Assembly: GCA_000091205.1 (NCBI GenBank)
Contig: AP006490.2
Direction: 5' to 3' (one strand)
DNA length: 64,000 bases
Source of the DNA: Cyanidioschyzon merolae
Taxonomy: Eukaryota
The notes below the pieces were generated by a model. It was not told where the DNA came from. It searched no databases and was given only the letters and a program-made list of their open reading frames with translations. This document shows positions 20,128 to 62,278 of the stretch, in pieces (the stretch's first letter is position 1; each line of letters starts with the position of its first letter). Made by a program: the position numbers and the translations under genes.

Positions 20128-20299
20128 ACTCTCTGTGGGCCGATATGTTGACCAAGCCGCCTCTTCGGAGCGCCGCCCTGTGCTATGTGAAGGCGCGCTT
20201 CATGGCCCGGTACCGGCGCTCGAGGGCTACAGAGGGCTCGCCTCCGTACCCTCCCAGATGCGCGCCACTGGTACCGTACCCGCGGACCATGTGCGTCTT

Positions 20300-20950: not shown

Positions 20951-20961
20951 GTAACGAATTC

Positions 20962-20985
20962 CAGCAGCAGCAGCAGCAGCAGCAG
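20962..20985. repeat. microsatellite (CAG)8 inside R2 copy A
   Basis: cagcagcagcagcagcagcagcag. Confidence 0.9.
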
Positions 20986-21477
20986 CCGCATATCAAAGTG
21001 ACCAATCCGAATAGGCGACCGAGAATTCGAAAACGACGACGCATGAGTCCCAAAGCCCTCATTGCTGCACGCGTATTGCCGAAGCTGTCCATCCGAAAGC
21101 AAGGATTCTTAGAACTCGTGCCCTCTGTAACTGAACAGTCTCGTCATGGTCCCGTCGGGCAAACCGTTTTTCTCGACAATCTCCCGTCTTCTTTTTCAAG
21201 TGCACTCCTTCGCTCTATGATCAGCGAGAAGGGCATTTTATCGTTTTCCACACTGGCATCCGACGATGAAGGCCCTCCAGGATCCCCGACTTCCACGTCG
21301 ATGCCGTTCGCTTGGATCTCTTATTTGTTCAAATGAACGCAGTTTGAACGCATCTGCGATGAACCGCAAAAAAGCGTCTGATGGCATTCGCCTAGATGTG
21401 GAACGCATTGGAGATGTTCATTCTCGAAACGCTCTGCTTCCCTGAACCAACTAGTGCCAGTAGAACGAGTGCTCCCC

Positions 21478-42709: not shown

Positions 42710-43194
42710 GCAAGCTGTGGTCACCGTTCACGCCGACTGAATACCGCAACCCCATGCTTCAGTTGCGCTTCCCCGGTTCAAGTGTTAAGGTCGATAGGCC
42801 GTGGAGTGGTTGCGTTTTTATTGGCTCGGAATCTCCGCTGCAAGCAAGCTATTCAACTATTTGGCGCTGCGTCTGGTGTTTTTCTTGAAATGCCCAGTCT
42901 CGTACTCTACCCGTATGAGAATAAAACGGAACTGGTCCAGTAAGCAGAGTTGGGCATACGCTCGAGATTTTGAATGTGTGCCCGGCATGTTCAAAACAAG
43001 TCCATGCGGGATATTCTCTGACTGCATTCGTTACCCCGCTCGTCTCACAAGCTGTGCATACGTCGGTCTCTCATGTGCTTCCAGCTCCGTCGTCGTTATT
43101 GGAGTAAATCTGATGGCAGCGTTTTAGTTCGGACGTCGCTGCATCCGACTGTAGTCTATGCATTACACGCGCCAGCGGGCGTTGCGATCCACGC

Positions 43195-44100
43195 CTCATT
43201 TGCCATGCTCAGCTTCTTTATAGACAGTCCCGATGCAGTCGCCAAAGCGGTGACACTTGATTATGGTTAGCTGCGCTCACATGCTCACCATACAAGCCGT
43301 CTCTCAGCGAGCGGCCTCTGTGGCGCCTGAACGCTTACTCCATCACGCGGTAGATGTCGGTTTCTGGGTCAGAAGGCCCGCCTCGATGCTCGAATCTGTT
43401 TTTCGCTGCCAATGGCTTGCCCTCCGTCACGGGCTTCTTCGTTGCGATCCACTCGGCGAGTACTCTGTCCGTTGCACGCTCGTACACACACTGTCCTACT
43501 CGATAGAGGATTTCCAGGACATGGTGCTGTCGATGATGAAATAAGTATCGAGTGGAAAATCCAGACTGGAGAACAAGTAGAGAAATCCTGATGCGTGTGC
43601 GCTCCCTTCGTGCAACGCAATGGTGCACGCTGCACTAGAAGCAATTGCTTCGACGAATTGAACCAAAGTCCAAGGCCTTTTCCCATGCAAGCTGAAGAGA
43701 CGGGAGCTTCTGCTTGCGTGTCGCGTGCCAGGCACCATGTTGCTGTCGAATGCCGTTTCCTAGAAAGTTCCAGTGAGAGAGAGGGGCGTGTTGGTATTTC
43801 CCACGGAATCGATTCCTCTAGTTGATAGCTTCAGCATACTTGTGGGATGCGCTTATGGACAAGTCGTCAAGGAATTACATCAAGTTTTGTTGCTCGTCGT
43901 ACCAGCAGCACGAATCGCCGCGCCGTCGACTTGCCCCGACACAGCAACATCAAAAACTTGAAGAATATGCGATTTGAGCGTCCCATACCCAAGGAAACGA
44001 GAAACGTGGAGGCTTGTACATATTCGTTGGACCACGATATCGACTACAATATGAATACTGGTTCGAGGGCATCCCCAATTATCTTGATTTCGGTGGCGTC
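43195..44100. repeat. dispersed repeat family R2, diverged copy B
   Basis: See copy A. 43195-43330 also aligns with the sequence just outside the left inverted-repeat arm (tcatttgcca...cagcggtgacacttg...). Boundaries approximate. Confidence 0.6.
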
Positions 44101-44498
44101 TTCAATGCCATCAGCAGCGCCTCTAAGCAGCCACACCGAGAACACGACCGAGACTCCCGGAACGACGTATGAATCCGTAAGCCCATGGTGCTGCACTTTG
44201 ATGTCGAGCATCTATATTTTGAACAAGATCGAAAAAGTTTGAAATGATGGAACAGAACGAACAAGACAGTACCCTAAATTTACCGTACACGGATGTGCAA
44301 CACTCCTGCACCATGCGTGTGACGCCACGCAACGCCACGCGTGGCTACGCTACCCGCGACGCGCCAGCGAGGTTGCACGTGCTGTTGCAGCGGGCGCTTG
44401 CGTTGAGCGCGTTTCCCTCTTTTTCTTCAGCCGTTACTCTGCAAGTTTCTGTTCCGTGAACGTTTCCTTTTGAATCATTGGGCACTCTTGCGTTCGCC

Positions 44499-45998
44499 AT
44501 GGACGGATTGTGGGCACGGAAGGACGGCGGAAACGGTCTTGTGGACGAGCAGGGACTCCGTGCACCACTCTCGGGTGGACTCGGTTGGGAGTCCAGGATG
44601 CGTTCCCGCTGGAATGACTGGCTGCGCAAGCTCGACGTTTACCCCAAGACTGTCGAGGACGTGCGCTTACGTTCTGTGACAGGAGGCATCATCGCTTTAT
44701 TTTCGTACATTTGCATCGGTATTCTGGTCGTTTCAGAGTTTCTGCGGTGGTTGCAGCCCCAGCTCCACTCTAACGTGCTCGTGGACGCGCGCTCGATTCT
44801 CGATACCGAGCCAATCACGGTAGATCTGGGCATAGATCTCCTCGCTGTCGGTTGTGACGAGTTTAGCCTTGACGCGCTCACTGCGAACGGCGCGCAGCTC
44901 CCCAACAGTGTTGTGGAGCTGCGTAAACGCCCATTGGATGCGAGCGGTCAACCTGTGATATTTCCCCGAGGTGCATTCGGACGCAGTCGTCTGCGGAACG
45001 AGCGAGGTGGCGTAGCGCCAGCACCTCAGGCGCTAACGGAAGACCCGCCAAACACACAGCAACTCGAAGGGCGAGTATCCCAGGAAGTACGCGCGCAACT
45101 GAAACAGTATCGCGAAGAGGCGATAGCTTTCCGTGATCGCCTTGCAGCGTTGAACAAGACCGGTGTTGCGTATTGTGGCTCCTGTTATGGTGCTGTGCCT
45201 CAAACAGATCAAGTCGGGGAGGCGAATCAAATAACGTCCGGAGTATGCTGCAACACCTGTGATGAAATTCGCGTCCTGTACGAGGAACGGAACTGGGCAT
45301 TCGATCAAGTGCTTCGAACGGCGGAGCAGTGTGCTGAAAAACGCTACTTGACGCTGCTTCACGAAGCCGGTCGTGTTCAGTCTGGTGGCTGTCGAGTGTC
45401 CGCACGTTTACAGCTACCACGGGTGGCGGGCAACTTTCACTTTGCTCCGGGCAAGGGCCATACGCACCGTATGGGCCATCATGTTCATTCGGTAGATGAT
45501 CAGTTGCTCCACCGCACCTATAATTTCTCGCACCGTATTCGGCATTTGCGGTTTGGTCCGCTGTTCCCGCACCAGCAGAATCCACTTGACGGCGCGATGC
45601 GGATTCTGGAGCAACCGCCGCCGGGGTCACCTTTTGGCAACATGGTGCTGTATTATTGCAAGCTTATACCGACAACATACCGTCGAGACCGCCAGCGCGG
45701 CGACGCACTTCGATCGATGGAGTACGCAGCCGCAGACCTGACACAATCATCGGAACAGGATCGGGTGGGAATCACGCATAGTACGGGTGCATTGCCAGGA
45801 ATATTCTTTTTTTACGAACCTCAGCCTTTGCAAATCGCGTACTTTGAAGGTCGGATGTACGGTTTGCTGCATTTCATCGTCCAGCTATGTGCCATTGTTG
45901 GAGGCGTTTTTACCGTAAGCAGTATGATCGATCGTTTTGTATTTGGGGCGGGAACCTTCATTCGGGCGCAGAAGCGCCGGCTCGGCAAGCTTGGGTAA
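44499..45998 (+). CDS. ERGIC3: ERGIC3/Erv46-family ER-Golgi intermediate compartment protein
   Basis: ORF 44478..45998 (TTG; first ATG 44499). N-terminal LRKLDVYPKTVEDVRLRSVTGGIIALFSYICIGILVVSEF (ERGIC_N plus TM); lumenal Cys-rich domain (YCGSCYGAVP...CCNTCDEIR); a C-terminal TM and FGAGTFIRAQKRRLGKLG tail. Confidence 0.8.
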   Translation: MDGLWARKDGGNGLVDEQGLRAPLSGGLGWESRMRSRWNDWLRKLDVYPKTVEDVRLRSVTGGIIALFSYICIGILVVSEFLRWLQPQLHSNVLVDARSILDTEPITVDLGIDLLAVGCDEFSLDALTANGAQLPNSVVELRKRPLDASGQPVIFPRGAFGRSRLRNERGGVAPAPQALTEDPPNTQQLEGRVSQEVRAQLKQYREEAIAFRDRLAALNKTGVAYCGSCYGAVPQTDQVGEANQITSGVCCNTCDEIRVLYEERNWAFDQVLRTAEQCAEKRYLTLLHEAGRVQSGGCRVSARLQLPRVAGNFHFAPGKGHTHRMGHHVHSVDDQLLHRTYNFSHRIRHLRFGPLFPHQQNPLDGAMRILEQPPPGSPFGNMVLYYCKLIPTTYRRDRQRGDALRSMEYAAADLTQSSEQDRVGITHSTGALPGIFFFYEPQPLQIAYFEGRMYGLLHFIVQLCAIVGGVFTVSSMIDRFVFGAGTFIRAQKRRLGKLG

Positions 45999-46000
45999 TA

Positions 46001-47074
46001 TACTCAGTAGTATCGAAGCATGGAACACCGCAATGTTTGACCATTTGCCCAGAAAAATCGTTGTCTATGGAGGTGTGTATGGCGCTCCAGCCTTGATGCG
46101 TTGCAGACCCGTACCACACCAGTGCGTTTTCCTCCTCGCTACTGATTGTTTTCATCGAAAGTGTGCGGCTTTTCAGCGCAATGTCTACGGTGACTAGAAA
46201 GCGATTCCGTCGGATATTCGCGGCGTGCAAAGCCGCCGGACGCTGCGGCAGCAAGAGACATTTCCCGATCTCGGACGAGTCGCTCAAGTCTCTATTCGGA
46301 ACTCGCCTGCAAGCGCTGGTGCTGGTGGAATTATGCCCTAGCAAGCCTCTGACTTTCGCTTGCCTCGCCATCTGGCGTGCAGTCAACTTGCCCTACACCG
46401 TCTCTTGTGTCCGGGTGTGTTTCACGCTCTGCGACTCTGCTAGGCTCACGGAGCGCTCTTGCTTGTGATGCGTTGATCTAGTGCGGGACGCATCGACGGG
46501 CGTCGTGCAGCATCGATTGCTGAACGCGTTGTACGCTGACGTCGAATGAGCGGGAGTGCACCCTCTGGGAGCTGCGGTGCGTCGATTGCCGCAGACTACC
46601 ACGAGACGAGGCGACGCATCGGTCATGACCTGGTCCAGTGGCTCGAGCGAGCAGGCGAAAGCACGTGTCGTGCATCCGTACAACCGAGACGATTGGCAAT
46701 GCCGTCGCTGCCTCATGTACGCCAGCCAGGGATTGTCAATGGCAGCTATATCGACTGTCTTGTGATCTCTGCGTGAAAGACGCATACGAAGCGTTCCAGC
46801 GTGTTTGCTACGGTGCTTCGAGCATCAGGATAGGTTCTGAGGCTGTCACTACATTTCATCGTATGCCTGCTTGCAACCATCATACCCGAATGCGGATCAC
46901 ACCGAGCGGTGGAAAATTCTGAACAGCATCCTTTGCTTTCCGTACAAGTGTTTGGCGGCGGCTTATTGATTTAAGGGTTCAGCGACGGTCATGATGTTCT
47001 TAAACCTGGGATACACGCGCACCACCAAAGCTCTTTCAGCATCTACCATCATCGGTTGAAAATGAATCCGGATG
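46001..47074 (+). repeat. dispersed repeat family R1, copy 3 (full length); begins 3 bp after the ERGIC3 stop codon
   Basis: Near-identical to copy 2 over about 1.07 kb. Its 5' end lies immediately 3' of the ERGIC3 TAA (45996-45998), i.e. inside the presumptive 3' UTR. Confidence 0.85.
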
Positions 47075-48971
47075 TTCGATTTGGTACTTTTTCGCACCTG
47101 TGCGGTCGATGCTCCTCGCGACGAGGCAACGCGGCGACGCTTTGCGGCATTCGGGGAAGCGTGTCTGCAATTCTGTGAACCTAGGATCCGGCCGTGTCAC
47201 ATCTTCTGTCATGAGTATCGGATGTGATGTCCCGTGGAGGTATCATCGCAGAATTTCAGACGACTACGGACAACTGGCACCTTTTGCGCCTACAACTCCT
47301 GCGAATAATTGCTTGACGAGGTGCGTCGAAACGAGGTGCGCTAGGCAAGCCCTGAACGAGTAGCAAGCCACGTGATCTCCAGTGGCGTCCAGAATGTTTC
47401 CCGTTCGCGAACCAGAACCGCATTTCTATGGATCGATCAGCGTCGAATGGCGATCGATAACAAAGAGAACGCCTTTCACGGCGCCGAACCTGGAGCATAG
47501 GTTGGTACGAAATGCAGCGCAACGCTGATTTCACGTACGAACTCGCTGAGCGTTTTTGCGTGATGCACAGTGACCTTTTCAAAGGGCAGGAGAGAAGCGT
47601 ATGTGAGATTGAAGGCATAAAAAGTGCTTTGACGAGGCAGGAGCTGTTGAATGCTGGCGCCTATTCGGCGATTTGTCGCCCATAAAACCATGCCATCGAC
47701 GCTGGTGCTGTTGTTGCCGGTACGCCCCCTTGTCTCTGTTTTATGATGTGCGGTTCGCCGCTCTTCGCATGCCCATATACATGTCTACCAGCTCCCGCGA
47801 ATAAAACCCCATCGAGTGAGACGAGCACCCGTACCTTCGATAACCATAAGCATTTGTTATCCGTTCCGCAAGCGACAATGTGCAGGTCAACGCGGAACGG
47901 TGCCCTACCGAACCGCATCTCTGCTGTTGTCCGTCCGTGTCTCTTCATAGGTGTTGATTTCAATTGTATTGAAACTTCATTTGCTGGGGCTCCTCTCGTC
48001 GTTTTGCTTTCAGAATACATGGATGCGCATGGTTAGACGAGGACAGAATCGTATAGACCTAGTTTGTACATTTTCGTTTCGGGTGCATATTGTTCAGGAT
48101 ACGAACCACGAGAAGCGTGGTTCATCCACCTTCTCACCATACAATGACTGCGTTGTGAGTATGCGCTGGTAGAGCCCGCGTTGCAGCTCGGGACCCCTGT
48201 GCTGAAGCGCAATTCCCTTTTCAGCAGGCGCTGCATACGGTCAGTATAAAAAGTCCCATGACTGTGGAGGATATGTTAATACACCCACTAGCAGACGACT
48301 CCCAGTCTTTTTTCACCAGCCGTCTGGTATCGGTTTCAGTTTCTCCCTGCACACTTCGACCCTGCGATGGTGCTTCACAAAAATCTCTCGCCTCAGCTCC
48401 GCATACCGTCTGATACGAATGGCGGCGTTGAGGTCTCGGTGCTCGAACCTCTTGCATGCGTCGACGCTGGTTGAACTCACTATTGCAAGGATTCCTGGAA
48501 TTCGCGCCCGATGTACCACTACAGCGTCGTCACCCTCCCGTCGGGAAAGCACCTTTTCTCTCTTATCTCCCGTCTTTCTCCTCTTCATCATCACTTGCTC
48601 CTCTCCGCTCGGTTACCGGTGAGAGCAGATTTCTTTTCGTTCTTTTTCGGCAGCCGGCGGCACTTGCCCCGCCCGGATCCTCGACTTGCATTTCCTTGCC
48701 AGTTCTTTCGATATTTTATTTCTTGAAATAAACGCGTTTCTTTACGCCCTTACGAGAAGACCTTCCCAGGGAGAGAGGGATCTGTGGATCAAAGGCGAAA
48801 TATGCCCCTGGTTTGTCTCCGTGGTCTGAGCGCTTCAACGATTCGCACAGCGGGGCGTTCATTACGTTTCGGGATGCAAAACGCTCCATCGATGGGGTCG
48901 GACAACGCAACGTACCCAGGAATGAAAAGCAGCTCGACGTCTATAGAATCGGGGAAACAGCGAACGCAAGG

Positions 48972-49409
48972 GTAATGGTGAGATACCACGTTGTCCACTG
49001 GAGGGACGTCATCAGACGCCAGAGCAAAGTCCTCAATGGTTCGGCAATGTGGTTGTTGCTGTTGGACGAACCCTCTCTACGAGCGACACTGAGGCGGCCA
49101 AATGAACCCACTACTGCCAGAACAGATGCTAAGGTCGTTGTTCTCTTCGAGCTCGATTGTATATACAACGAGCTCTCCGCTCCGCCAATGCCCATATACG
49201 TTCCCAACGGTTCGTCCGAAGCAACTCTCATCGGCTGGAAAAGCAAACCGACGTTCCTGCGCCTCATAGAGATTGTGACGTCCCTTGAATCCTTGTCGTT
49301 GCGATTTCGGTGGAAGATGGCCGTGCGTGAACAAGCACTGTTTTGTGCCAGTATCCTAGTGTTTAGCGGACCACCCGAGCAAGCAGTCGAATTCCAGAGA
49401 CCCGTGTGA
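48972..49409 (+). CDS. hypothetical protein (weak call)
   Basis: ORF 48813..49409 (TTG; first ATG 48972). Non-repetitive sequence (VVLFELDCIYNELSAPPMPIYVPNGSSEATLIGW) but no family recognised. An overlapping out-of-frame ORF exists. Confidence 0.2.
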   Translation, partial: VMVRYHVVHWRDVIRRQSKVLNGSAMWLLLLDEPSLRATLRRPNEPTTARTDAKVVVLFELDCIYNELSAPPMPIYVPNGSSEATLIGWKSKPTFLRLIEIVTSLESLSLRFRWKMAVREQALFCASILVFSGPPEQAVEFQRPV

Positions 49410-50682
49410 TGGCTGTCATCGTCGCTTTTGCTTTCCGAAAAGTGATCAATGGGTCGTTTTCTAGCATTTGCCGCAAGCACTCTTTGAGAATACCGGTTTC
49501 TGGTGCGGATCGCATATATTTGTTTCTTTCAGTGTTCCTCAACCATCAGACGACTATGGTGTGACTAACCTGAAGGAGGAATGCAGCCATCCTTGCACTG
49601 TTCAGTAAAGATTCTATCCTACGGGCAACACGTCCACGCTCTGTACGGTACATTCCACTGGCATTTCGACCTCCTACTATACACCACTGCTGGTGTGGTA
49701 CAAAACTGAGTTCAAAGACCATAAGCGCCACAGTACAATGAGGCAACGCGAGGGATCGGGAACTGCGTTCCCGGCGCGTGGATCATTATTCTAAGTTCGC
49801 TTACGTTTCGAATGGCTGACGAGTATGGACGCTCTCGTAAACACTTTGGTCATTTCGGATACTCCGCAAGCAATCAAGGGAGAGCTCTATCGATGTTGTC
49901 CAACTTTTACGGTAACGAGTAACACCCCGATCAGGATGACGCTTCACTTGCTAGCGGTTGCAAATGGGTCCACGACGTCGCTACCAGAGCGGACCTCAAT
50001 GATTTTCTGGCTCGCCGGCGCGCCAGAAACGTTGGAACAACGTATGCTCAGTAATGCACCGCCGCGCATGCGTATTCTTGCTGGTAGGTGCTTCAGGCAT
50101 GGCGGTTCCGATCATGTTCGCCCGAGCTGTGACGCAAGCGCGTGCTCCTGATGCGGTAAATCTTCGGTCCATGAATCTATCCGGGATCAACAGATGTGTC
50201 GTGAAACGCTCTTCGGTAGCGAGGCCGGACCCAGCGAAGCATGCCGAGCGCCCAGGACGCTCTACTTGTCCAGACCAGTGCGGCCGCTGTTCCGCGGTTT
50301 GGATGTGAGAGCCCGGCCGGATCTTCCCCGCACAGCAGACAATCCATTCAGATCCACAGACGGTTTCGTGTAAGCACCGTGCGACGCGTGGAGCAGGCGA
50401 AAGCTCCCATCGACACCGATTCGTGGGTTGATCGTTGCGACGACGGCTCGTTTTTCAGAACGTCTGCTTGAGCGATCAGGCGAGAAGTGTCAGGGTCGGT
50501 GAGACGTGGTCTCGATCACGCTGAGGTCCCATACGCAGCGCATAGCATCTATTCCTGAATCCATCATCACATTACGGGGCATCGTCGCAGAGCTATAGGC
50601 ACCACGGTTCCGAGTTCAACACACATCTCTAAGCGTGCATAACAGGATCAATCCCAACAATACAGCGCACCTCTGCCAACTT

Positions 50683-51777
50683 CTAAGCTCCAGGGTTCAC
50701 GGAACTCGCGGCATTTGCGCGATCACCGCTGGGACGTGCCCATTCGACGGAGAGAATTAAGTGATCGTAACCGAAACCATTCAGTTTGGCGATGCAACGT
50801 TCCGCTGCTGAGCGTTCCGCGAACGCTGCGAACGCGAAACCCTTCGGCGCGCCGGTGTACTTATCGCGTGCCAGATAGATGCGCACAACTCGCCCAAATG
50901 GCTCAAGCAGCTGCCGCAAGTCATCTTCTGTGGCACCCTCCGTCAAGTTACTGATGCGGATGGAGTTTTCCTCGCGACGTCCATAGAGGGAATCTCCCTC
51001 ACGCAATCGCGCCGATGCTCCTGACCGCATCGATGGCGGCACATATCGAGTTGCACCGCTGCTCGTGGCACTCGCCGCCATGCTGCCGCCCGACCCTGCG
51101 CTGGGAGCCCCAACTGCCCCAGTCGCGCCGAGTATGCCATCTGGAGCTGTTGAGGCGGCGCTACCAGGAAGACCGAGTCCATCGGCGGCCCCTTGTAAGC
51201 CCTTATAGGGGCAACGAAGTGTCCAGTGATCACCAACGCGCCCACATATACGGCAAACTACAATAGACTTGTTGGTCATGAGGTCTTCGCCACTACCGCT
51301 TCCGCCGCCGCCGCCGCCGCTCGCCGAAGACGGTGCCGCACCCAAACTTGGCACCGCCTCGCCACTTTCCTCGTCATCGCTGACCTCGGTGTTACGCGTG
51401 TTCCACTCGATGGGAATGTCTTCGTTTGCCTGTGTGGTGGTGTTTGCGTTCTCGGTAGCGGCGACCCCAAACTTGCGCCAGCAGCGCCGCCGCTCTGCAA
51501 CTGCAGCGCACACCCGCCGTCGCTCAAGACGACGACGAACGCGCCGAGTCCGCTGAACAACGTATCCTTCGTCGTTGACGTAGTAATCCACGATCGTAAC
51601 AATGCCGTCTGCGTCGGGTTCGCTCACTCGTGGCGGTGGTAGGCCACCGCCGCCCTTATCGAGTTGCGTGGTAAGCGCGCGCCCCAGGGACGCGACCGCA
51701 TCGGGAGAGTCGTTTTCGGTCTCATCCCAAGCGTCCTCTGACGTCGTTGGCTCAACAGTTGCAACGCGTAAGCTCAT
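50683..51777 (-). CDS. EIF3G: eukaryotic translation initiation factor 3 subunit G (eIF3g)
   Basis: ATG codon 51775-51777. Zn-knuckle-like IVVCRICGRVGDHWTLRCPYK and C-terminal RRM SIRISNLTEGATEDDLRQLLEPFGRVVRIYLARDKYTGAPKGFAFAAFAERSAAERCIAKLNGFGYDHLILSVEWA, with the domain order typical of eIF3g. Confidence 0.85.
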   Translation of the reverse strand: MSLRVATVEPTTSEDAWDETENDSPDAVASLGRALTTQLDKGGGGLPPPRVSEPDADGIVTIVDYYVNDEGYVVQRTRRVRRRLERRRVCAAVAERRRCWRKFGVAATENANTTTQANEDIPIEWNTRNTEVSDDEESGEAVPSLGAAPSSASGGGGGGSGSGEDLMTNKSIVVCRICGRVGDHWTLRCPYKGLQGAADGLGLPGSAASTAPDGILGATGAVGAPSAGSGGSMAASATSSGATRYVPPSMRSGASARLREGDSLYGRREENSIRISNLTEGATEDDLRQLLEPFGRVVRIYLARDKYTGAPKGFAFAAFAERSAAERCIAKLNGFGYDHLILSVEWARPSGDRANAASSVNPGA

Positions 51778-52916
51778 CTGGGGAGTTCCTCGCGTCTGTC
51801 CGCGGCGAAAAATACCAGGCGTGCACGCCGTAAGCTAAGCGCTAGCAGGTACGCTTGCAAGCGGCGGATGCGCGTGTCGCGGCGTGGCTGCCGGTGATTT
51901 TCTTTCGATGGAAAAATATCTCTATGAACCATGGATCCCAGATTGCGTGATGGATATTTGCATACGGGAATGTTTCGTTTATGCTGCTATCTACCTTCAA
52001 GTTCCATTACCTATACTTCCTCTCGGATGTGCTGGTCGTTTCGTACGTTCTATCGTGCGCCCAGTACCTGCCTTGAGCGCTCACAATAACGCCTATAGCG
52101 CAAGTGCGGATGCTGCTCAGAGACAGAACGGGTTTGTCATGCCCGTTTGGGCGTCGGATGCAGGTCAGGATATGGACCTGTTTCCATGACAAGTGCAGCT
52201 GCCTTCTCGTGGCATTATCGCAGGAACGGAGAATCTCCCGTACACATCCCGATGCGAATGATTTCCATCGTGCACTGCCGCTGCAGATTAAACGTGTCAA
52301 CGAAAGCGCGAACATTTGCTTCAACTCCTCAAACGTTGCACCAGTGAAAGACCGAGCCTGCTTATCACACATGCAATGGAAACCGGGCTGGCTCTGTCAA
52401 ACAGATATGAGCTTCGCCCGCTGTACCTCTTTGCGAACAAAATGGAAGGGGCGCCCACCGAACGAACTCGGGCATACATACTCAAGTTTGGGTCTCTTCC
52501 CCATGCCATCAACACCAGCAAATTCGGGCGTTTTCTCCGACTGCTCTCTTTGCCCCTCTTATCTCCGTCTCTGAAGATGCACATCCCTACGGTGCCTCTG
52601 GCTCTGTTGTCAGCAGTCGAAGGATGTTGATGGCAGCGTTCAGGTGCCAATTTCGCCGCTCGCGGCTGGTGTCGACGCGTCTGATCCGCCGATGGAAGTT
52701 GCGAACTACACGTCATTTGCCACTTTCAGCTTCGTTACATAGAGCCTCGGTGCGCATTTCGCAGCGGTGACACTTGGATGTGGTCGGTTGTTCCTATGGG
52801 TCCACGGTGCCTCCTGTTTCTCCGTAGGTCGCTATGTGTCCCGTGAACGCTTGCTTCGTCGATTGGTATATGCCCTTGACGTCTACCCAGGGCTCTGGTT
52901 GATGTTAAATCCGCTT

Positions 52917-53803
52917 CTGCACCTGGTGCCGATGCTACGGACCCTGGCTTCTTCTGGGCCACTTGGTCGGCGATTACGCTGTCCGCTGCACATGGGGGCA
53001 CACGCTGATCCGCTCAACAGAGGATCTGTGGAACGCGATGCTGTCCATTATGAAACAGGTGCCGGAAAGAGACCCCAGCCAGGAGCTCAAGCCGCAAAGT
53101 ATCGATCCGTCTATGCATCCTCCGTGCATAGCGATTGCGCACGCTCTACTGGAGGCGGTCGCTGCGAGGACTGAATTCCGAGTCCGAGACCTTTTCTCCA
53201 TCCACACAATAGAGACGGGAGCCTCTGCGAGTATATCCGATGAGAGGAACCGCGCTGCTGGTGTCGAATGCAACAATGTCGATGACCGCAAGCAGAGTAG
53301 GATATGTCTCCAGAACGGAATCGAATATTCGACGTGAGAAGCTACGGGATATGTCTGCAGAAGCTTGTGCCGTCGTCGCCACGGGAGGACGCCAAGTTGT
53401 TTGCGCTGGAAATCTGGCGGCGCGCGTTGCCGCACTCCACGGATTGCCCTGAAACAGAACGATCGAGGCTTTGAAGAATGCGTGATTCTCGTAAACTAGA
53501 CGTAGGAGAAAGGAGTGGCGTAGAGGCTTCTGGGTGTCATCTGGATCCTGATATCTGGTATTTCACGCGACCTTGTTTGATGGCGTCGCGAAACATCTTG
53601 ATTCCGGTGACGTTACCAAATCCAGCGGCCAAGCGTGGAAGGAGCCACTCGGAAAACACGACCTAAAATCCTTAAACTACCTACGAATTCGTACATCCTT
53701 ATCGGTTCACTTGGAATATCGAGGCTGTACCAATAAAAAATTTCGGAAAAGAATCGAACTGCAAGAACAGAGTGAGCAATGTAGCGTTCCATTTCAATCT
53801 GAC
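52917..53803 (+). repeat. left arm of a large inverted repeat (R2 family member); about 98% identical to the reverse complement of 55212-56096
   Basis: Identity runs from ctgcacctggtgccgatgcta... to ...ccatttcaatctgac. ORF-track peptides in the two arms are near-identical on opposite strands (MRDSRKLDVGERSG... at 53478+ vs 55348-; the 124-aa ORF at 52963+ vs 55677- differs at 4 residues). A weaker similarity to R2 copy B extends outward to about 52715. Confidence 0.9.
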
Positions 53804-54283
53804 ATAGATATATCGTCCCAGGCGCCGAGCACTACGAGAGCGATGCAATCGAAGGCTGCTCACGGGCACGCGATCCATCGTATCCCTCAGATTTCGACTC
53901 GATGCAAGGCATCTCAGCGTGAACAACAGCGCCCGTGCCTCGGGGGCGCTGTTTCCGATCGGCGTGATGCGCACCACGATTTTGGGAGCGCCGCCCCAAA
54001 AGAAGTTGCAAACGCCGCCACCAACATCGGGATTGGGGCGAGCGCCGTCGCAGGAACACCACAAATGCGCCTCTGCGCGCATTTCACCATCATCTAGATC
54101 GCCAGATTTGGATGCTTTACTAAACCGGAGATCAGAGCATAGACACCGAAGCGCAGTGGACATGATCGTAATAAATAAATCTGCATTGTCGCTTTCCGCA
54201 GAGAAAACGAACAAGCTTCTCAGCGTCACCACGCGGTCTTCATTGCGCAAACGAACGTAACGAGCCTCGTGTATAAAGTAGAA

Positions 54284-54955
54284 ATGGCGGTCTCCAGGGT
54301 GCTTATTGTGGCTTGCCTGACCTTTCTAGCAGCGTTTGCATCGCTTGCTCAGGCATATGAATACAAGCAGCAGTGCCAGGTAGAGCAGGTGTGTGCGCAA
54401 TATGTGAACCAATGCCAGCAGTATGAGAATGTATGCCTTCAGCCATATCAGAAGTGCAAGCAGTACGAGCAGATTTGCGTGCAGCAGCAGCAGCAGTGCA
54501 AGAACTATCAGACTGTGGAGAAGCCAGTGAAGGTCTGTGTCCAATACGAGAAGGAATGCATCCAGTTTGCATACAAGGAGCAGTGCAAGCAGCAGGAGCA
54601 GGTGGTTCAGCAGCAGTACTGGTATCGTCGCTGGTACAAGCAGGAAGTGCCGGTGAAGCAGGTGTGTCAGAAGCAGCAGTACTGCGTCCAGTATCAGGAG
54701 AACAAAAACAAATGTGCGCAATATGGAACACAGTACCAGAAGATTCAGGAGTGCGTGCAGTACGAGAACCAATGCGTCCAATATGGACAAGGCAAGTGTC
54801 TTCAGTATGAACAGGCTTGTCAGCAGTACGGGCAGAAGTGCGCGAACTATCAGCAAGTGTGCAAACAGTACCAAAAGGTGCTCGTCTGCAAGAAATATCA
54901 GCAGGAATACAAGAAGCAGTATCAGCAGCAGTACTACGCGCAGGGATACTACTGA
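54284..54955 (+). CDS. secreted Gln/Cys/Tyr/Lys-rich periodic repeat protein (about 13 C-x-[Q/N]-Y units, 20 Cys), no recognisable homologue; candidate extracellular structural/cross-linked matrix protein
   Basis: ORF 54269..54955 (GTG at 54269; first ATG 54284). MAVSRVLIVACLTFLAAFASLAQA is a textbook signal peptide. Mature part: YEYKQQCQVEQVCAQYVNQCQQYENVCLQPYQKCKQYEQICVQ...CVQYENQCVQYGQGKCLQYEQACQQYGQKCANYQQVCKQYQKVLVCKKYQQEYKKQYQQQYYAQGYY. The gene sits alone in the 1.4-kb spacer between two 0.89-kb inverted repeats. Confidence 0.6.
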   Translation: MAVSRVLIVACLTFLAAFASLAQAYEYKQQCQVEQVCAQYVNQCQQYENVCLQPYQKCKQYEQICVQQQQQCKNYQTVEKPVKVCVQYEKECIQFAYKEQCKQQEQVVQQQYWYRRWYKQEVPVKQVCQKQQYCVQYQENKNKCAQYGTQYQKIQECVQYENQCVQYGQGKCLQYEQACQQYGQKCANYQQVCKQYQKVLVCKKYQQEYKKQYQQQYYAQGYY

Positions 54956-55211
54956 AGGAGCTTTGCGATGGACGTGGTGGCTGGTCATCTCTATGTGAGC
55001 GGACAGAGGACAGAGTCCGCGGAGTGACGTGGGAGTGCTAATGGACAGTATATCTGATGGAAGTGTACAAGGACGTTCATTGTAGTGCCTTGAACAATTA
55101 TAAATTCTGAATTTCGTCATCATTTCAAAGCGCCCTTGTCTGAGTTGCCATCTGCTGCCCTGGCCCGTGGATTGTCGCATCGCTTTCATGGCGCGTCTGC
55201 TTCTCTGTGAC

Positions 55212-56096
55212 GTCAGATTGAAATGGAACGCTACATTGCTCACTCTGTTCTTGCAGTTCGATTCTTTTCCGAAATTTTTATTGGTACAGCCTCGATATTC
55301 CAAGTGAACCGATAAGGATGTACGAATTCGTAGGTAGTTTAAGGATTTTAGGTCGTGTTTTCCGAGTGGCTCCTTCCACGCTTGGCCGCTGGATTTGGTA
55401 ACGTCACCGGAATCAAGATGTTTCGCGACGCCATCAAACAAGGTCGCGTGAAATACCAGATATCAGGATCCAGATGACACCCAGAAGCCTCTACGCCACT
55501 CCTTTCTCCTACGTCTGGTTTACGAGAATCACGCATTCTTCAAAGCCTCGATCGTTCTGTTTCAGGGCAATCCGTGGGGTCCGGCAACGCGCGCCGCCAG
55601 ATTTCCAGCGCAAACAACTTGGCGTCCTCCCGTGGCGACGACGGCACAAGCTTCTGCAGACATATCCCGGAGCTTCTCATGTCGAATATTCGATTCCGTT
55701 CTGGAGACATATCCTACTCTGCTTGCGGTCATCGACATTGTTGCATTCGACACCAGCAGCGCGGTTCCTCTCATCGGATATACTCGCAGAGGCTCCCGTC
55801 TCTATTGTGTGGATGGAGAAAAGGCCTTGGACTCGGAATTCAGTCCTCGCAGCGACCGCCTCCAGTAGAGCGTGCGCAATCGCTATGCACGGAGGATGCA
55901 TAGACGGATCGATACTTTGCGACTTGAGCTCCTGGCTCGGGTCTCTTTCCGGCACCTGTGTCATAATGGACAGCATCGCGTTCCACAGATCCTCTGTTGA
56001 GCGGATCAGCGTGTGCTCCCATGTGCAGCGGGCAGCGTAATCGCCGACCAAGTGGCCCAGAAGAAGCCAGGGTCCATAGCATCGGCACCAGGTGCA
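55212..56096 (-). repeat. right arm of the large inverted repeat (R2 family member)
   Basis: Reverse complement of 52917-53803 with about 2% mismatch. Inner junctions are sharp: 53803|53804 and 55211|55212. Confidence 0.9.
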
Positions 56097-56594
56097 GAAA
56101 CAAACTCGACATTCTTGCACAAAGCGCACACCTCGTAGCGTTCAACCCCTGGCGCATTGGATCGATGCGTGCGCCGAAAGCGCTTGTCACGCTCGAATTT
56201 GATGTCACAGGAAACGGCAGCGTTCCGGAGCCGAAATCGGCGCAGCAGCGCGCAGACGCGCGCGCGCCATCACTGCCTATGCGATCTGCGCGCCGACTAC
56301 GATGTCCCAGCAGTTTCGGCGCGCAAAAGCGCTTTCTTGGCTTTGGGCGGTGGGTACTCAAGCCAAACCAGCCGCGCGAGGGTCTACGGAAACGCCGGTG
56401 GTGTTGTGTGTGTGTGCAGGGCTTTCGTGCTCGCTCATTTTCCAACTGAACTTGGCTCAATTACGTGTAGTGTACAAAGTTATCTAGGATTCGATCGTGC
56501 GGGAGTGCTTTCAGAGTTTCACGAACACGCAGCTCTTCGGCGGAGCAGCCAAAGCCATTCAAGTGCTGTCGGAATATCGTGAAGCTTTTACCGG

Positions 56595-59393
56595 ATGAGT
56601 GCTTGTCTGAGCCGCGCTGATCCCCCGAAAACGGACGAGAAGCCGGCACAGACACCGCCTCGTCTCCTGGCAGTACAGGCGGTGCTCGATAGTCGATCCT
56701 GCTTCTCGGAAACTGCCAGCGCCCGCGTTCATCTGGAGCTACAACCGTGTGCGCTGGCGCCTAGCGAATCGGTTGCGTGCCTTCCGTCGCTTTTTCCATG
56801 CACGATGGACCAGTCCGAGGAAGCCCCGCTTCCGGGTCGGCGCTTCATCTTGCAGGGTGACTGGGCGCTGTCGCCGATCACCCCTGCCGTTCGACAGCCG
56901 CCCATGGAGCGTCGAGCGCCCGGCACCATGCTGCCGGAGGGCTTTAGTGAGGCGGCGACCAGCACCCACGGCATGAGCATGGGAACTTACTACTCGATGA
57001 GATTGGGTTCACCCGTTCCACGTGGAGGGCGGATGCGGACGACACGCCCGTGGCCTGGGATGGCGCTGAGTCCCGCACACGGCTACGCCTTGCAAACCCT
57101 AGCTCCAAGCTCAGCGTTGCTTGATGAATACAGGCGCCAGGCACTGGGGCTGAATACTGAGCCCCACTCTGAGCAGGACGTCATTGATACTGACCCATTT
57201 TCACCAAGCGATGCCGATTTGGCCATGGAAGCCGGTGTTTCCGTCACACCGATGCGTCCAGGCGCGAGTTCACCGCCGATGTCGAGCCCAGTGTACGCCG
57301 GCGTTGGCCTAGCGTTTGCGGTCGATGGAGGATCTCCTGCACTGGGGCCCGGGTCATGTGTAGGCGCGTTCGGGGCCGGAGTGATGACAGGCTGTTCCCT
57401 CATGCAGCCAGCCGCCTGGTCGAATAGTGCAGCAGCGCTGACGCCACTCACCGCACGCCTGCGGGAACAGTCCAGAGTCGCGGCGGATCTCGATCCGGAT
57501 TTCGCTCAGGTTGCCCTGGCTACCAACGACCAACGTTTGCGTATCAAACGATATCGGCAGATCTACGGCGGTATTCAGTCACCAACTACATCGGCAGCTG
57601 GGGTATCACAACCTGATCCACGCGTGTCGTTGAACGTGCCTTTGGAATCTAGTCAGGTCGTCTCGAAAGCAACGCACGCGCAGCGCATAGCAACGGGCAT
57701 TTCCGTTCCGAGCGCCACCTCCGGCTGCTGGGATCCTGATTTCGCTGCAAAGAAGCAACAAGCGGATCCATATGTTAGGCCCCTATCTTGCGAGTCTGCG
57801 CGACCTCCGCGAGAATGCAGTCAGGCGACTACCTCCACCTCGATCGCTAATGCATACTGTCGATTCGAGCACCCCGTTTACTTGGACGCAACGGACTTGA
57901 ACGATGAGGATGCTACCCATTCAGAGGCTTTCAACGAAAGCAACGAGAACATTCGCCTGGAGGCTAGCTTCAGCAGTGAGACCCCAGCGGGTGCCCTGCA
58001 GACGTCGTCTACCCGTGACGAGATGCACAGCCGCGCGCATCTATCCGCTCATGCCGCTGGTGATATGGGTCCTCCTTATGGTATCCCTGTACTGCAAGTA
58101 CTTCAGGAGCGCCAGTTGCCGAACTACATAGAGACAGCGCACGGCAACGAATCGATGCATTCACGCGACCCGAGCCTTCACCAGCAACCAAAAGGATCAT
58201 CAAATCGAAAACGTTCGCGGCACGAAACAGACCCTATGGCGTACCAAGCGGGTACGAGGCATCCTGATGGAGGGTATTGCCCCAGTAGGCCATACTGCTC
58301 GATGCAGAAGACGGAATCGGCCCACACATCAGCATCATCCTCATCGGATGACCTGGTCATGTCGCAGAACACATCCAAAACGCTATCACAGGATCGTTCG
58401 TGTGTACGCTGTTTCGAATCCGGCCTCGAGCGGAAACGCGTTCTCTTCGCCGTACACCCAACCGGTGTCGATGAACGCTCCCTGCCGTCGACCTCGATAG
58501 CAACAGACACAGTGCGAGAAAACCGTCAGTCTTTATTTCCCTCGCCCCATGAAGTACAAGACGGGCACTTTGCGCCTACCGAGGATAACGGTATGCGACC
58601 GTTGCCTTTTGCGGCGAGCGGCAGCGAACGGAGCGCTCTTGCGCCGCCGCCGGTCTCTGTACCCGACGCTAGAGTCATATGTCCCGCATACGAGTCCGTT
58701 TCAGCAGCGCAGTCGCTCGCTTCAGCCGACCAGCATTGCCTCGATCACCATCGAGATACTTTCAGCATCAATCAAACAATCAACTGCTGGTCAAGCGGCA
58801 GAACACGCTATGCACCGGAACCACAGACCCACGCGATGGTGTCCCTCGACGGAACCCAAGCCGAGCATACCGTGGACCCCTATCTACCCTCAGAGGTGCA
58901 TCCTGGAGCTACTGCTAGTGCTGCTGCGCTGGTGCTTGACCCAGCCGCAGCTGCTGAGCTACAACGAGCATCCCGTCGGTTACAAACACCTCGCACCAAC
59001 ACGTTACGAATCGCATCCAAGCGGTGTCGTTGCCGTCGTTCCCGATGTCTCAAGAAATATTGCGACTGTTTCGCCGCAGGTAGTTTCTGCGGCCCTGAGT
59101 GCGAGTGTGAGGGCTGCGGCAACCATCAAGACAACCAGGAACAGGTCGAACGGGCTCGTCAAAGTGCGTCGCAGCGCTCGAGTACCTCCGGTGAGGCACT
59201 AAACGGTGAACCCAGTGCCTCGGAGCGTTCGTCACGAGGCTGTCGCTGCAAGCGCACCGGATGTCTGAAGCGATACTGCGAGTGTTTCCAGGCCGGACGG
59301 GAGTGTACGGCACAGTGCGCCTGTGAAGGCTGTCTGAACTGTCGCGGGCTCAGTGAACACTTGCTGGTTGAAATTCGACGGCGGCTTGCTTGA
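56595..59393 (+). CDS. tesmin/TSO1-like CXC (CRC) domain protein, LIN54-like; two C-terminal CXC modules after a long low-complexity N-terminal region
   Basis: ATG 56595. CRCRRSRCLKKYCDCFAAGSFCGPECECEGCGNH ... CRCKRTGCLKRYCECFQAGRECTAQCACEGCLN. Confidence 0.75.
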   Translation: MSACLSRADPPKTDEKPAQTPPRLLAVQAVLDSRSCFSETASARVHLELQPCALAPSESVACLPSLFPCTMDQSEEAPLPGRRFILQGDWALSPITPAVRQPPMERRAPGTMLPEGFSEAATSTHGMSMGTYYSMRLGSPVPRGGRMRTTRPWPGMALSPAHGYALQTLAPSSALLDEYRRQALGLNTEPHSEQDVIDTDPFSPSDADLAMEAGVSVTPMRPGASSPPMSSPVYAGVGLAFAVDGGSPALGPGSCVGAFGAGVMTGCSLMQPAAWSNSAAALTPLTARLREQSRVAADLDPDFAQVALATNDQRLRIKRYRQIYGGIQSPTTSAAGVSQPDPRVSLNVPLESSQVVSKATHAQRIATGISVPSATSGCWDPDFAAKKQQADPYVRPLSCESARPPRECSQATTSTSIANAYCRFEHPVYLDATDLNDEDATHSEAFNESNENIRLEASFSSETPAGALQTSSTRDEMHSRAHLSAHAAGDMGPPYGIPVLQVLQERQLPNYIETAHGNESMHSRDPSLHQQPKGSSNRKRSRHETDPMAYQAGTRHPDGGYCPSRPYCSMQKTESAHTSASSSSDDLVMSQNTSKTLSQDRSCVRCFESGLERKRVLFAVHPTGVDERSLPSTSIATDTVRENRQSLFPSPHEVQDGHFAPTEDNGMRPLPFAASGSERSALAPPPVSVPDARVICPAYESVSAAQSLASADQHCLDHHRDTFSINQTINCWSSGRTRYAPEPQTHAMVSLDGTQAEHTVDPYLPSEVHPGATASAAALVLDPAAAAELQRASRRLQTPRTNTLRIASKRCRCRRSRCLKKYCDCFAAGSFCGPECECEGCGNHQDNQEQVERARQSASQRSSTSGEALNGEPSASERSSRGCRCKRTGCLKRYCECFQAGRECTAQCACEGCLNCRGLSEHLLVEIRRRLA

Positions 59394-60764: not shown

Positions 60765-62278
60765 CAACGATGCTCGGGATCTGCCTCATGGTCTACCTGA
60801 TCGATCCGCGGGCAGCGATGCTGTCAGTCAGGTGCCAAACGATGGCTGCTCGCCTCCGGGCGCTTCTTCGTGGCACGCACTCCAGGCAAATACGCCCGAT
60901 AGCAACACGGGCATGATTGATGTAGCGAGCTTGCGCAATTGCTGTCTTTGGTGTAAGTTTTTCGGAAACAAGGTAGCGTCGAATCAGCTTCCGCGAAGAG
61001 ACATTGGATCGACGCGGATCCAAGTGTCGGGAGGCTGGCGCAGATCATACACTCGATCGTGGGACGTCATGCAGAGATCATCGAAAGGTGCAATCCCGCT
61101 CGGTGATGGTTAGCCTGGTGGCGCGATGTTATCCATGACCCGCGCATCAGCCAGAGAACATCGTGGTGCCTGGTCGGCCGCACCACTGGCCATTCGCAGG
61201 CGGTGGACTGCCCGTCCTCGAAGCGCATCACTGGAACAGCAGGTGCCTCAGCATTGCTCGCAACGAACAAGTTTTGTGCGCCCGCGAGCGGCTCTGCACC
61301 CGAAGACCTACACAAACGCCCAACGGACCCGGGAGGCGTACGATGCTGCACGCGAGGGCCAGTGTCTGATACCCTGCCTAGATCGTCAGTAGTTTGGCCT
61401 TCGGAAAGCCCGTGTACCATCCATACAATGCTGTACGCGACCGTTGATGTCTTGATCGTCCATGCGCTGCCAGGCGCGTTCAACCTGCAGCAGCAGCAGC
61501 ACCAGCAGCAGCGAATCCCTGTATCGAGGTCGGATGCAGCGGCGCCATCTGCGTAGACATGAAAGTGACTGTACCGTACCAAAATATATATATGTATTCA
61601 TTTCTGTACTGGATGCAAACGGAGCCTTCGGAACGTTCGTCATCGCTCTTGACTCGCAGCTGCCGGAATCCATTCCATCTCGCTTGACGAAGCGCTGACA
61701 TTGACTATGGATCCTAGATGGCGGGATGGATATTGGCATTCGGGAATCACGCATCAGGCTGCACCCTACCTTCAAGCTCCATTTCCCGTACTTTCCTTGA
61801 ATGTGCTGATCGTTACGTTCATTCTATCTTACGCCAACTGCCTACCGTGAGCACCTGCAATAATGCCGAAACAGCTGATGCGTAGGCGGCATGGAGACAG
61901 AACGGTTTGTCACACCGCTGGGGGCGTTGGCTCGAGGCATGGTTCACCGGTCACGGGATCCGGAATTCATCATTATTTTGGGCGCCAGGAAACTGCCCAG
62001 ACAGACGCAGTGTCTGCGGCAGCGCAATGCGATACGCTAATGGACCACCGCGACCAGGGCGACGCCCAGACGCACCATACCTGCTCCCCGTCCCAGAATA
62101 AACTGCGTTATGGACAAGCTGCTCAGGTCTCGCCACTGCAGCCGGTATTTGGGGGTGCATGAAGCACGAGCCCCGCAGACTCGTCCGGCTCGCGGGAGCT
62201 TCGGCCTAGAAAGTAACCTTTCGAATACACGGAAAACATTTCCACCTTTCAACGCTTGCCGAACAAGAGCAAAGAAGT

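Follow-up and report, generated by a model that had tools for sequence, protein, structure and literature searches.

A conserved gene of Cyanidioschyzon merolae lies between opposed copies of a repeat and appears to occur in both orientations among lineages

The QCY gene of Cyanidioschyzon merolae is enclosed by two opposed copies of an interspersed repeat. The locus is a clear case of ordinary repeat-mediated inversion; it is not a new kind of element, and no new mechanism is needed. [quoted passage not shown] The locus lies in a 64,000-nucleotide stretch of chromosome 8 of C. merolae 10D (contig AP006490.2), the whole of which is called the window here. C. merolae is a model red alga, prized for its “simplest”, fully finished genome and for its efficient homologous recombination. 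The QCY locus would show that recombination acting on endogenous repeats, homogenising opposed copies and inverting a gene between natural lineages, and it is relevant to users of the 10D reference when strains are compared or genes are targeted near repeats.

The inverted repeat and its flanks

By blastn, 52915–53803 and 56099–55212 form an inverted pair of 889 nt at 98.4% identity (E = 0), with 13 mismatches and one 1-nt indel. The same pair was recovered in two pieces by a separate repeat search of the window. A sequence-only reading of the window had proposed inverted arms of about 98% identity; that similarity held on exact alignment, with the outer ends slightly adjusted to 52915 and 56099. 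Between the arms is a unique spacer of 1408 bp (53804–55211). The junctions between repeat and unique sequence had been called sharp and are so at all four places, the ungapped identity falling to 22–28% in the first 100 nt past each. The two arms share identical runs of 144 nt and 237 nt. On the left, the flanking gene encodes eIF3g (50683–51777, minus strand; Pfam eIF3g and RRM_1; identical to BAM79827). On the right, it encodes a CRC/Tesmin-TSO1 CXC-domain protein (56595–59393, plus strand; Pfam TCR; identical to BAM79829).

The repeat family behind the arms

The arms belong to a family of non-coding interspersed elements of about 1.38 kb, of which a profile HMM finds six copies in the 64-kb window. 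The left arm (52915–53803, plus strand) is the inner 889 nt of copy a, a full-length element (52421–53803, plus strand; model positions 2–1384) inserted in the head-to-head spacer of eIF3g and QCY. Copy a reaches 494 nt outward past the inverted repeat, so the unit has no symmetric ends. The right arm (55212–56099, minus strand; profile HMM and blastn) is copy b, which is 5′-truncated and has its native 3′ terminus at 55212. It matches model positions 494–1384 only (56104–55212). No family 5′ sequence was detected past 56104, even with the HMM search filters off, and for that reason we rejected the idea that copy b is an old full-length copy that was partly converted.

The other four copies are scattered to the left. 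Copy c (42905–44288, plus strand; HMM match, about 60% identical to copy a) is a clean insertion in the head-to-head spacer of TENA and ERGIC. In copy d (19700–21155, plus strand), part of the 5′ region is duplicated internally, and nhmmer gives two adjacent matches (model 28–388 and 259–1373). Copy e (5301–6713, minus strand) covers model positions 2–1384. Copy f (1–306, minus strand; HMM and sequence alignment) is incomplete because the window begins inside it. The earlier reading had noticed diverged copies near 20.3 kb and 43.2 kb. These are real, and two further copies accompany them. Copies a and b are far closer to each other (98.4%) than to the other members of the family (60–67%).

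The inner junction of the inverted repeat is the family’s native 3′ end, which agrees within about 2 nt across independent copies. The terminus is CTGAC followed by A in copy a, CGTAC followed by A in copy c, CGGAC followed by A in copy e and CTGAC followed by G in copy b. The boundaries of the inverted repeat are the limits of homology between copies a and b. The earlier reading had named a very recent inverted duplication as one possible source of the arms. An arbitrary duplication is not supported, because the native 3′ end of a dispersed element forms the inner junction and the right arm is a 5′-truncated copy of it. Copy b may be a young truncated insertion, or else an older truncated copy that was later homogenised. 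A constant 3′ end combined with variable 5′ truncation is a non-LTR-like trait, and copy b has it. Copies a, c and e have no TSD of at least 7 nt at their ends, no direct repeat of at least 6 nt flanks copy b, and none of these four copies has TIRs. Nor is there a poly(A) or simple-repeat tail, the 3′ ends simply reading CTGAC, CGTAC and CGGAC.

Coding potential of the arms was rejected because six-frame tblastn scores are alike in all frames and mismatches between family copies have no 3-periodicity. Neither the arms nor the spacer gave an Rfam match (E ≤ 1) or an ARAGORN match. That the arm might be a promoter or UTR common to paralogous genes was rejected as well, since the genes adjoining the other copies are unrelated (L10-like, FKBP-like, ERGIC). 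Logan k = 31 contigs all end at 52635, and we considered this as a sign of a third young copy. That site falls in the most conserved block of the family, so the contig stops show only that a 30-mer is common to another member.

The genome of C. merolae is reputed to be nearly transposon-free. Its annotated repeats include 26 non-LTR elements, 8 class II elements and 253 “novel interspersed repetitive elements”, also called WSV repeats, with a mean length of 3.2 kb (PMC1955436; PMC5405695). Like the WSV repeats, the arm family is interspersed, lineage-specific and located between genes. Compared by description, it differs from them in its length of about 1.38 kb, its absence of coding signal and its density, with 6 copies in the 64-kb window; for the WSV repeats the figure is about one per 65 kb. 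With neither TIR, TSD nor tail, the 1.38-kb family could conceivably be an undescribed class of mobile element.

The enclosed gene

QCY (54284–54955, plus strand) encodes a 223-aa secreted protein with a predicted signal peptide, the latter encoded by about 54284–54355. The mature protein is rich in Gln, Tyr, Lys and Cys (Q58 Y29 K23 C20), and its cysteines fall at heptad intervals. The ORF is real: all 20 cysteines are spaced exactly alike in a homologue of 41% identity (P0001), and comparison with orthologues gives pN of 0.13–0.15 against pS of 0.85. QCY had been described as the only ORF in the spacer. Strictly, mechanical antisense ORFs are present there too, and what stands is that QCY is the only ORF with homologues.

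Relatives of QCY are very few, only 11 among 1.84 billion representative proteins, and the protein has no Pfam match. P0001 is a paralogue, one of three clustered genes at another locus of the sister species; an inverted repeat was looked for around it and none was found. The structure prediction for QCY is of low confidence (pLDDT 64, pTM 0.27). To find the ORF annotated at this locus in the reference as BAM79828, QCY and nine other ATG-initiated ORFs were compared with the exact-match protein collection, and none of them was in it. QCY points to a tiny, lineage-restricted family of secreted cysteine-heptad proteins in an alga that is described as wall-less.

A resident gene and arriving arms

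Orthologues of QCY with 77–79% amino acid identity are found in two outgroup species (contigs L044 and L046), where they lie between CRC and eIF3g. In both, QCY is divergent from eIF3g, as in the window, and there are no arms. The arm family has no match in 56 kb of outgroup loci. Spacer lengths can also be compared with the sister species. The eIF3g/QCY spacer is 2506 nt here versus 1025 nt there, and subtracting copy a (1383) leaves 1123. The TENA/ERGIC spacer is 1753 nt versus 366 nt, and subtracting copy c (1384) leaves 369. The family thus seems abundant, and its non-coding insertions have made the promoter-containing spacers of C. merolae longer than those of the sister species. Since QCY stands at the same site and in the same orientation without arms in the outgroups, the arms were inserted around a gene that was already resident and did not bring it as cargo. 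The window orientation, found in 10D and in the outgroups, is the ancestral one.

The sequence-only reading had likened the locus to a foldback-type element with a cargo gene, and we weighed the corresponding model, in which arm, gene and arm move together as a foldback or composite transposon. The layout does recall foldback elements and IS-flanked composites, and the arm family has inserted elsewhere. In Tn5/Tn10-like composites and FB elements, inverted copies of a repeated element likewise flank a gene. Here, however, the gene is ancestral at its site, occurring there in the same orientation in two outgroups that have neither the arms nor any of their family, and the unit does not move. 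The copies are unequal in length, the left one extending 494 nt past the inverted repeat, so that the ends are asymmetric. Neither TSDs nor a transposase were found, and a scan of metagenomes met the QCY gene at this locus alone. We regard this model as refuted.

Spacer orientation in wild relatives

Eight metagenome contigs, each from a different sample, span a complete arm, and they enter from both flanks (L005, L006, L021/L042, L022, L023, L026, L028 and L043). In all eight, the spacer is inverted with respect to the window. Each gives a single end-to-end HSP only against a version of the window in which 53804–55211 has been reverse-complemented. The sole environmental contig in the window orientation is L058, a k = 31 Logan contig, which is weak evidence because such a contig cannot preserve linkage. 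Among assembly contigs with k of at least 127, none has the window orientation, and every assembly that resolves the locus has one orientation, not a mixture. The orientation calls are made on short-read metagenome contigs that bridge an 889-nt repeat; as the arms of the window have identical runs of 144 and 237 nt, a k = 127–141 graph would resolve only arms that differ more there than those of the window do. The window orientation in 10D itself rests on the reference assembly.

Some contigs were set aside. L041 has the right flank at both ends and is a palindromic assembler artefact, and it was not counted. Contigs carrying a 361-aa variant of eIF3g were rejected as orientation evidence since all of them break before or inside the arm.

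By these short-read assemblies, the spacer appears to occur in both orientations among C. merolae lineages, being inverted in the sampled environmental populations. The geometry had been said to permit inversion, and the eight arm-spanning contigs, opposite to the window and to the two outgroups, agree with that.

Exchange between the arms

At 20 of the 30 variable arm sites, both alleles are found on both arms, and the shared alleles include 5 of the 7 sites that lie within 100 nt of the unique flank. This allele sharing indicates that the arms exchange sequence. The mosaic arm haplotypes could partly be a consensus of co-occurring strains, although the flank-adjacent sites are physically linked to the flank. 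Elsewhere in the window, positions 1–191 of copy f are 97% identical to 6414–6604 of copy e, and beyond them identity drops abruptly to family level (about 55%), inside the element, as at the boundary of a gene-conversion tract. Homogenisation by gene conversion had been offered as one explanation of the likeness of the arms, and both the shared-allele sites and the tract boundary in copies e and f bear it out.

We also considered a single historical inversion that left a static structure. It could have arisen by a staggered break that duplicated the sequence between the nicks or by one recombination event, with the orientation in 10D due to a Sanger misassembly or to one rare reversal. The agreement of all the reliable arm-spanning contigs, with no high-k contig in the other orientation, is what such a model expects, and the staggered break predicts exactly the order flank, X, inverted segment, X′, flank. 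The divergence of the arms (1.6%) is near the divergence of strains (about 1%), and continuous homogenisation is not strictly required. The staggered break predicts an ancestral state without the second copy, and the outgroups are without both copies. Other observations go against the model. The window orientation is ancestral in two outgroups, and a random misassembly would match that only half the time. On its inner side the block ends at the native terminus of the family within about 2 nt and not at an arbitrary point; an arbitrary nick would fall there in under 1–3% of cases. Finally, alleles are common to both arms as far as the outer edge, which requires exchange to have happened repeatedly. 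We regard a static inversion as unlikely.

Recombination between the arms as the mechanism

Efficient homologous recombination in C. merolae, including pop-out between repeats, is established (PMC8504449). In the reading that we prefer, recombination between the opposed copies, two tail-to-tail elements came to bracket the conserved single-copy QCY within the C. merolae lineage, the full-length one upstream of the gene and the 5′-truncated one downstream. The 889-nt arms would then be substrates for the alga’s homologous recombination, which we infer to be the mechanism. Non-crossover events (gene conversion) would hold the arms at about 98% identity and spread alleles between them, and crossover events would invert the 1408-bp spacer.

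Within the spacer, QCY has 480 nt upstream and 256 nt downstream. Since the gene flips with its own 480 nt of upstream sequence and, whichever way it lies, has the same arm sequence to its left and right, the inversion is most likely neutral and probably not a regulatory switch. The opposite view would be a programmed switch resembling phase variation, in which a flip between the eIF3g side and the CRC side affects how a secreted protein of the surface or wall is expressed and gives heterogeneous populations. QCY is indeed secreted, strongly constrained and rich in cross-linkable Cys, Tyr, Gln and Lys, its host is an alga said to have no cell wall, and two orientations do exist in nature. Against this, the whole gene with its upstream and downstream sequence is inside the spacer, between arms that are near-identical whichever way it points. 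Apart from QCY, neither the spacer nor the arms contain a conserved ORF, a recombinase included, and the neighbours are only eIF3g and the CXC protein. The resolved assemblies each show one orientation, and the outgroups manage without arms. We hold a programmed switch to be highly improbable.

A broader proposal is that the arm-gene-arm segment flips appreciably within clonal populations by general homologous recombination, and that expression of a candidate wall or coat protein depends on the way the segment lies, for instance through the neighbouring promoter region of the divergent eIF3g in one orientation and the region upstream of CRC in the other. This proposal, together with the independent one that the 1.38-kb family is an undescribed class of mobile element, seems very unlikely. 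If true, clonal flipping that altered QCY expression would give a eukaryotic alga a counterpart of bacterial phase variation that works without a recombinase.

The geometry would also allow a long snap-back stem. Read-through of arm, gene and arm could give an 889-bp dsRNA stem that silences QCY or the repeat family, making this a hairpin-RNA or small-RNA locus. C. merolae is reported to lack Dicer and Argonaute, which counts against such a locus, as does the absence of an Rfam match. In its favour, interspersed repeats of C. merolae are reported to be transcribed (PMC1955436); on the other side, transgenes are reported to be expressed without silencing (PMC8504449). We find a hairpin-RNA locus scarcely credible.

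Comparison with known systems

Recombination between the arms of the QCY locus has its closest parallels in non-allelic homologous recombination between long inverted repeats. Such recombination inverts the sequence between the repeats in the flip-flop of the plastid-genome IR and in FLNA-EMD at Xq28, and the human X/Y palindromes combine arm-to-arm gene conversion with inversion polymorphism of the spacer. The QCY locus resembles these palindromes in its near-identical inverted arms, a spacer in both orientations among lineages, polymorphisms common to the two arms, which indicate concerted evolution, and the lack of a dedicated recombinase. It is much smaller than they are, with 0.89-kb arms and a 1.4-kb spacer holding one gene, and its arms are two members of an interspersed family where those palindromes have a segmental duplication. 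In plastid genomes, both isomers occur within one individual, whereas at the QCY locus the two orientations are known among lineages.

The Hin/Gin/Fim systems and FLP/FRT of the yeast 2-micron plasmid share with QCY a segment that is bounded by inverted repeats, has two orientations and involves the gene of a surface or secreted protein. They differ in that the QCY locus has no recombinase gene and offers hundreds of bases of general homology in place of short recombination sites. QCY also flips together with its own upstream region, so that no connection between promoter and gene is changed.

Inversions between Ty elements in yeast or IS elements in bacteria are alike in that opposed copies of a dispersed repeat provide the homology and a host gene is inverted passively. 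The QCY arm element differs in being non-coding and without recognisable TIR, LTR, TSD or tail, and its two arms stand apart from the rest of their family, at 98.4% identity to each other against 60–67% to the other members.

Structure of the Inverted Repeat

The gene in question, QCY, encodes a secreted protein rich in Q, C and Y, and it stands between two inverted arms at 52915-53803 and 56099-55212. In blastn, these are 98.4% identical over 889 nt and differ by 13 mismatches and a single 1-nt indel; a second repeat search recovers the pair too, split in two pieces. The inverted repeat is thus present as the sequence-only reading had claimed, with arm coordinates adjusted by 3 nt or less. 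The spacer between the arms (53804-55211) is 1408 bp. The arm ends are sharp, since ungapped identity drops to just 22-28% in the first 100 nt past each of the four junctions. The left flank is eIF3g (50683-51777, minus strand) and the right flank is a Tesmin/TSO1 CXC protein, CRC (56595-59393, plus strand), identical to C. merolae 10D BAM79827 and BAM79829, respectively.

Both arms belong to an interspersed repeat family. A profile HMM made from four copies was used to scan the window, and it located six members: copy a (52421-53803, plus), copy b (56104-55212, minus), copy c (42905-44288, plus), copy d (19700-21155, plus), copy e (6713-5301, minus) and copy f (306-1, minus, truncated by the window edge). 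The diverged copies noticed earlier near 20.3 and 43.2 kb are among these at 60-67% identity, and two further copies were found. In copy d, model positions 259-388 occur twice (19700-20257), an internal duplication. The left arm lies in copy a, and the right arm is copy b, which covers model positions 494-1384 only; no family sequence was detected by the HMM past 56104, filters off included. The 3' ends read CTGAC|A in a, CGTAC|A in c, CGGAC|A in e and CTGAC|G in b, and the homology of independent copies stops about 2 nt or less from the inner junction. Because copy b is confined to those model positions and homology stops at the inner junction, the inverted repeat is the overlap of a full-length copy with a 5'-truncated copy, tail to tail. 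Both of its boundaries are homology limits and not arbitrary duplication breakpoints.

The family is non-coding. All six reading frames give like scores between copies, mismatches have no three-base periodicity, and Rfam and tRNA searches gave no match. A search of the copy ends found no TIR, no tail and no target-site duplication of at least 7 nt. Copy b could be a young 5'-truncated insertion; its native 3' end fits this origin, though no tail or target-site duplication supports it. An older truncated copy with subsequent homogenisation is another option. A third and less probable origin for copy b, as the by-product of a staggered-break inversion, leaves unexplained why its inner end is the element terminus. 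Where the spacer meets the right arm, positions 55208-55215 form a perfect 8-nt palindrome, TGAC|GTCA, because spacer and element end in the same 4 nt; it could be coincidental (about 1 in 256) or a remnant of the joining of copy b. All five eIF3g-side Logan k=31 contigs end at 52635, within the most conserved family block (52622-52650, …TGATGGCAGCGTTC…), which implies that an exact 30-mer recurs in some further copy of the family at another place in the genome. Published repeat inventories of C. merolae give transposons as 0.7% and count 253 'WSV repeats' with a mean length of 3.2 kb (PMC1955436; PMC5405695).

Insertion around a Resident Gene

The gene order and orientation DEAD-lipase-TENA-ERGIC-eIF3g-QCY-CRC-g280 are kept in the sister species (locus L044; eIF3g 67% identical). 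Between TENA and ERGIC, which stand head to head, there are 1753 nt in the window and 366 nt in L044; without copy c (1384 nt) the window spacer would be 369. Likewise, the eIF3g/QCY spacer is 2506 vs 1025 nt, and it would be 1123 without copy a (1383 nt). Blastn found no match to the arm family in 56 kb of outgroup loci. These comparisons show that the family inserts. Two other spacers are also much wider than in the sister species: DEAD/lipase at 4538 vs 1468 nt and ERGIC/eIF3g at 4684 vs 1848 nt (window 34712-39251 and 45998-50683 vs L044 17865-19334 and 11140-12989). Repeat-free tail-to-tail spacers are near equal, at 588 vs 479 nt and 354 vs 330 nt. Spacer growth seems chiefly due to repeat insertion.

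In L044 and in a second outgroup locus, L046 (eIF3g 72% identical), a QCY orthologue lies between CRC and eIF3g with 79% and 77% amino acid identity, respectively, and it is divergent from eIF3g as in the window. Neither locus has inverted repeats around the orthologue or family sequence nearby. QCY was thus already in residence when the arms came to surround it. The proposal of a foldback element or composite transposon with QCY as cargo is refuted by this armless gene at the same site and in the same orientation.

Inversion of the Spacer

Environmental C. merolae-like contigs, about 99% identical to the window, were gathered from metagenomes via flanking-gene variants and QCY itself. Most stop where a repeat would make them stop, either at the inner junction or at a point 127-182 nt inward of the outer edge. 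Eight contigs, from eight samples, run through a whole arm and reach the spacer. L005 and L006 do so from the CRC side, and L021 (= L042), L022, L023, L026, L028 and L043 from the eIF3g side. Aligned to the unmodified window, all eight split at the inner junction; on a synthetic reference with 53804-55211 reverse-complemented, each gives a single end-to-end HSP. Eight of eight in one direction would be an unlikely outcome of random assembler paths, with a one-sided probability of about 0.4%. One further k=31 Logan contig, L058, matches the window orientation. It is given low weight, because a 31-mer graph holds no linkage over 889-nt arms that are identical to each other for stretches of 144 and 237 nt. 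Contig L041 (Ga0207433_10076873), a palindrome in which arm-spacer-arm has the right flank on either end, was rejected as an assembler artefact; it shows that false assembler paths through the inverted repeat are possible.

At the level of lineages, the suggested recombination and flip-flop find support, in that the eight contigs carry the spacer inverted relative to both the window and the outgroups. Since the outgroups have the orientation of the window, at least one arm-bounded inversion has occurred in the C. merolae lineage regardless of reference accuracy. A true difference of 10D from the environmental strains would rest on the finished Sanger assembly.

Sequence Exchange between Arms

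The side of each of nineteen arm sequences was read from its unique flank. Of the 30 variable sites, 20 show both alleles on each arm, which supports the gene conversion proposed earlier. The same is true of 5 of the 7 sites that lie no more than 100 nt from the outer edge, a distance over which linkage to the flank is contained in one read or k-mer. A metagenome consensus may mix strains, so single haplotypes are not to be over-read; the pattern beside the flanks is robust to this. A cluster of four sites (53613, 53617, 53628 and 53666) has T, C, G and A on each arm of 10D, whereas G, G, T and G prevail on environmental arms of both sides. Alleles of the inner arm follow the spacer ends, not the flanks. 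Copies e and f, direct and 6.4 kb apart, are 97% identical (1-191 vs 6414-6604) as far as an abrupt boundary within the element. Past it, their identity drops to about 55%, the family level, and both still align to the family. This boundary looks like the edge of a gene-conversion tract between old copies.

Homologous recombination is efficient in C. merolae, and pop-out between repeats is established there (PMC8504449). In the simplest account, this machinery would act on two opposed family copies, with non-crossover repair homogenising the arms and crossover inverting the spacer. QCY flips with 480 nt upstream and 256 nt downstream. We infer that inversion is neutral, because the gene takes this flanking DNA along and, whichever way it points, has near-identical sequence beside it for 889 nt on each side. 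The event is of a known kind, in which opposed repeat copies evolve in concert and invert what lies between them, and this locus is a small, well-documented case of it. Of secondary interest are the arm insertion family and the orphan secreted protein.

The QCY Protein

The QCY frame (54284-54955, plus strand) gives a product of 223 aa whose N terminus resembles a signal peptide. Among the 199 residues of the mature part are Q58, Y29, K23, C20, V20 and E15. Its cysteine spacing (6-7-7-7-7-7-13-7-9-27-6-10-13-7-8-7-7-7-9) is the same in the 41%-identical homologue P0001 except for one gap, 28 vs 27. A Pfam search gave no match, and just 11 relatives were found among 1.84 billion representative proteins; the protein family is very small. 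QCY is constrained: in comparison with the two outgroup orthologues, pN is 0.13-0.15 and pS about 0.85, and among C. merolae strains 0-2 of 672 coding positions differ. Its predicted structure is of low confidence. From its Cys/Tyr/Gln/Lys-rich composition alone, it looks like a candidate for a secreted, cross-linkable structural or coat protein. C. merolae is described as wall-less (PMC8504449), and such a coat-like protein would be notable there. None of ten ATG-initiated frames between eIF3g and CRC, QCY included, is in a 15-billion-protein exact-match collection. By the order of the accessions, one annotated protein, BAM79828, should stand between BAM79827 and BAM79829; QCY may be unannotated, or annotated otherwise, in the reference.

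P0001 is a paralogue from the sister species, which has it in a cluster of three genes at another site. That cluster, on contig L002, encodes three more cysteine-heptad paralogues (426-1532, minus; 7729-8901, plus; 10001-10672, plus), which are longer and have Q/K-rich repeat extensions. It lies near Peptidase_S26, globin and NifU genes and is not the eIF3g locus.

Other Repeats in the Window

A second, unrelated family has three direct copies of about 0.9-1.1 kb within 23 kb (23147-24066, 36866-37942 and 45998-47074), 98-99% identical, with a minus-strand frame of 128-142 aa (MTARQMARQ...). Two of the three lie 2-3 kb downstream of arm-family copies. A short dispersed repeat of about 230-250 nt occurs at 51921-52171, 61704-61930 and 35703-35956 with 66-73% identity, one copy being directly left of copy a. 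Finally, a 68-nt unit is duplicated in tandem at 14517-14657 with 87% identity.
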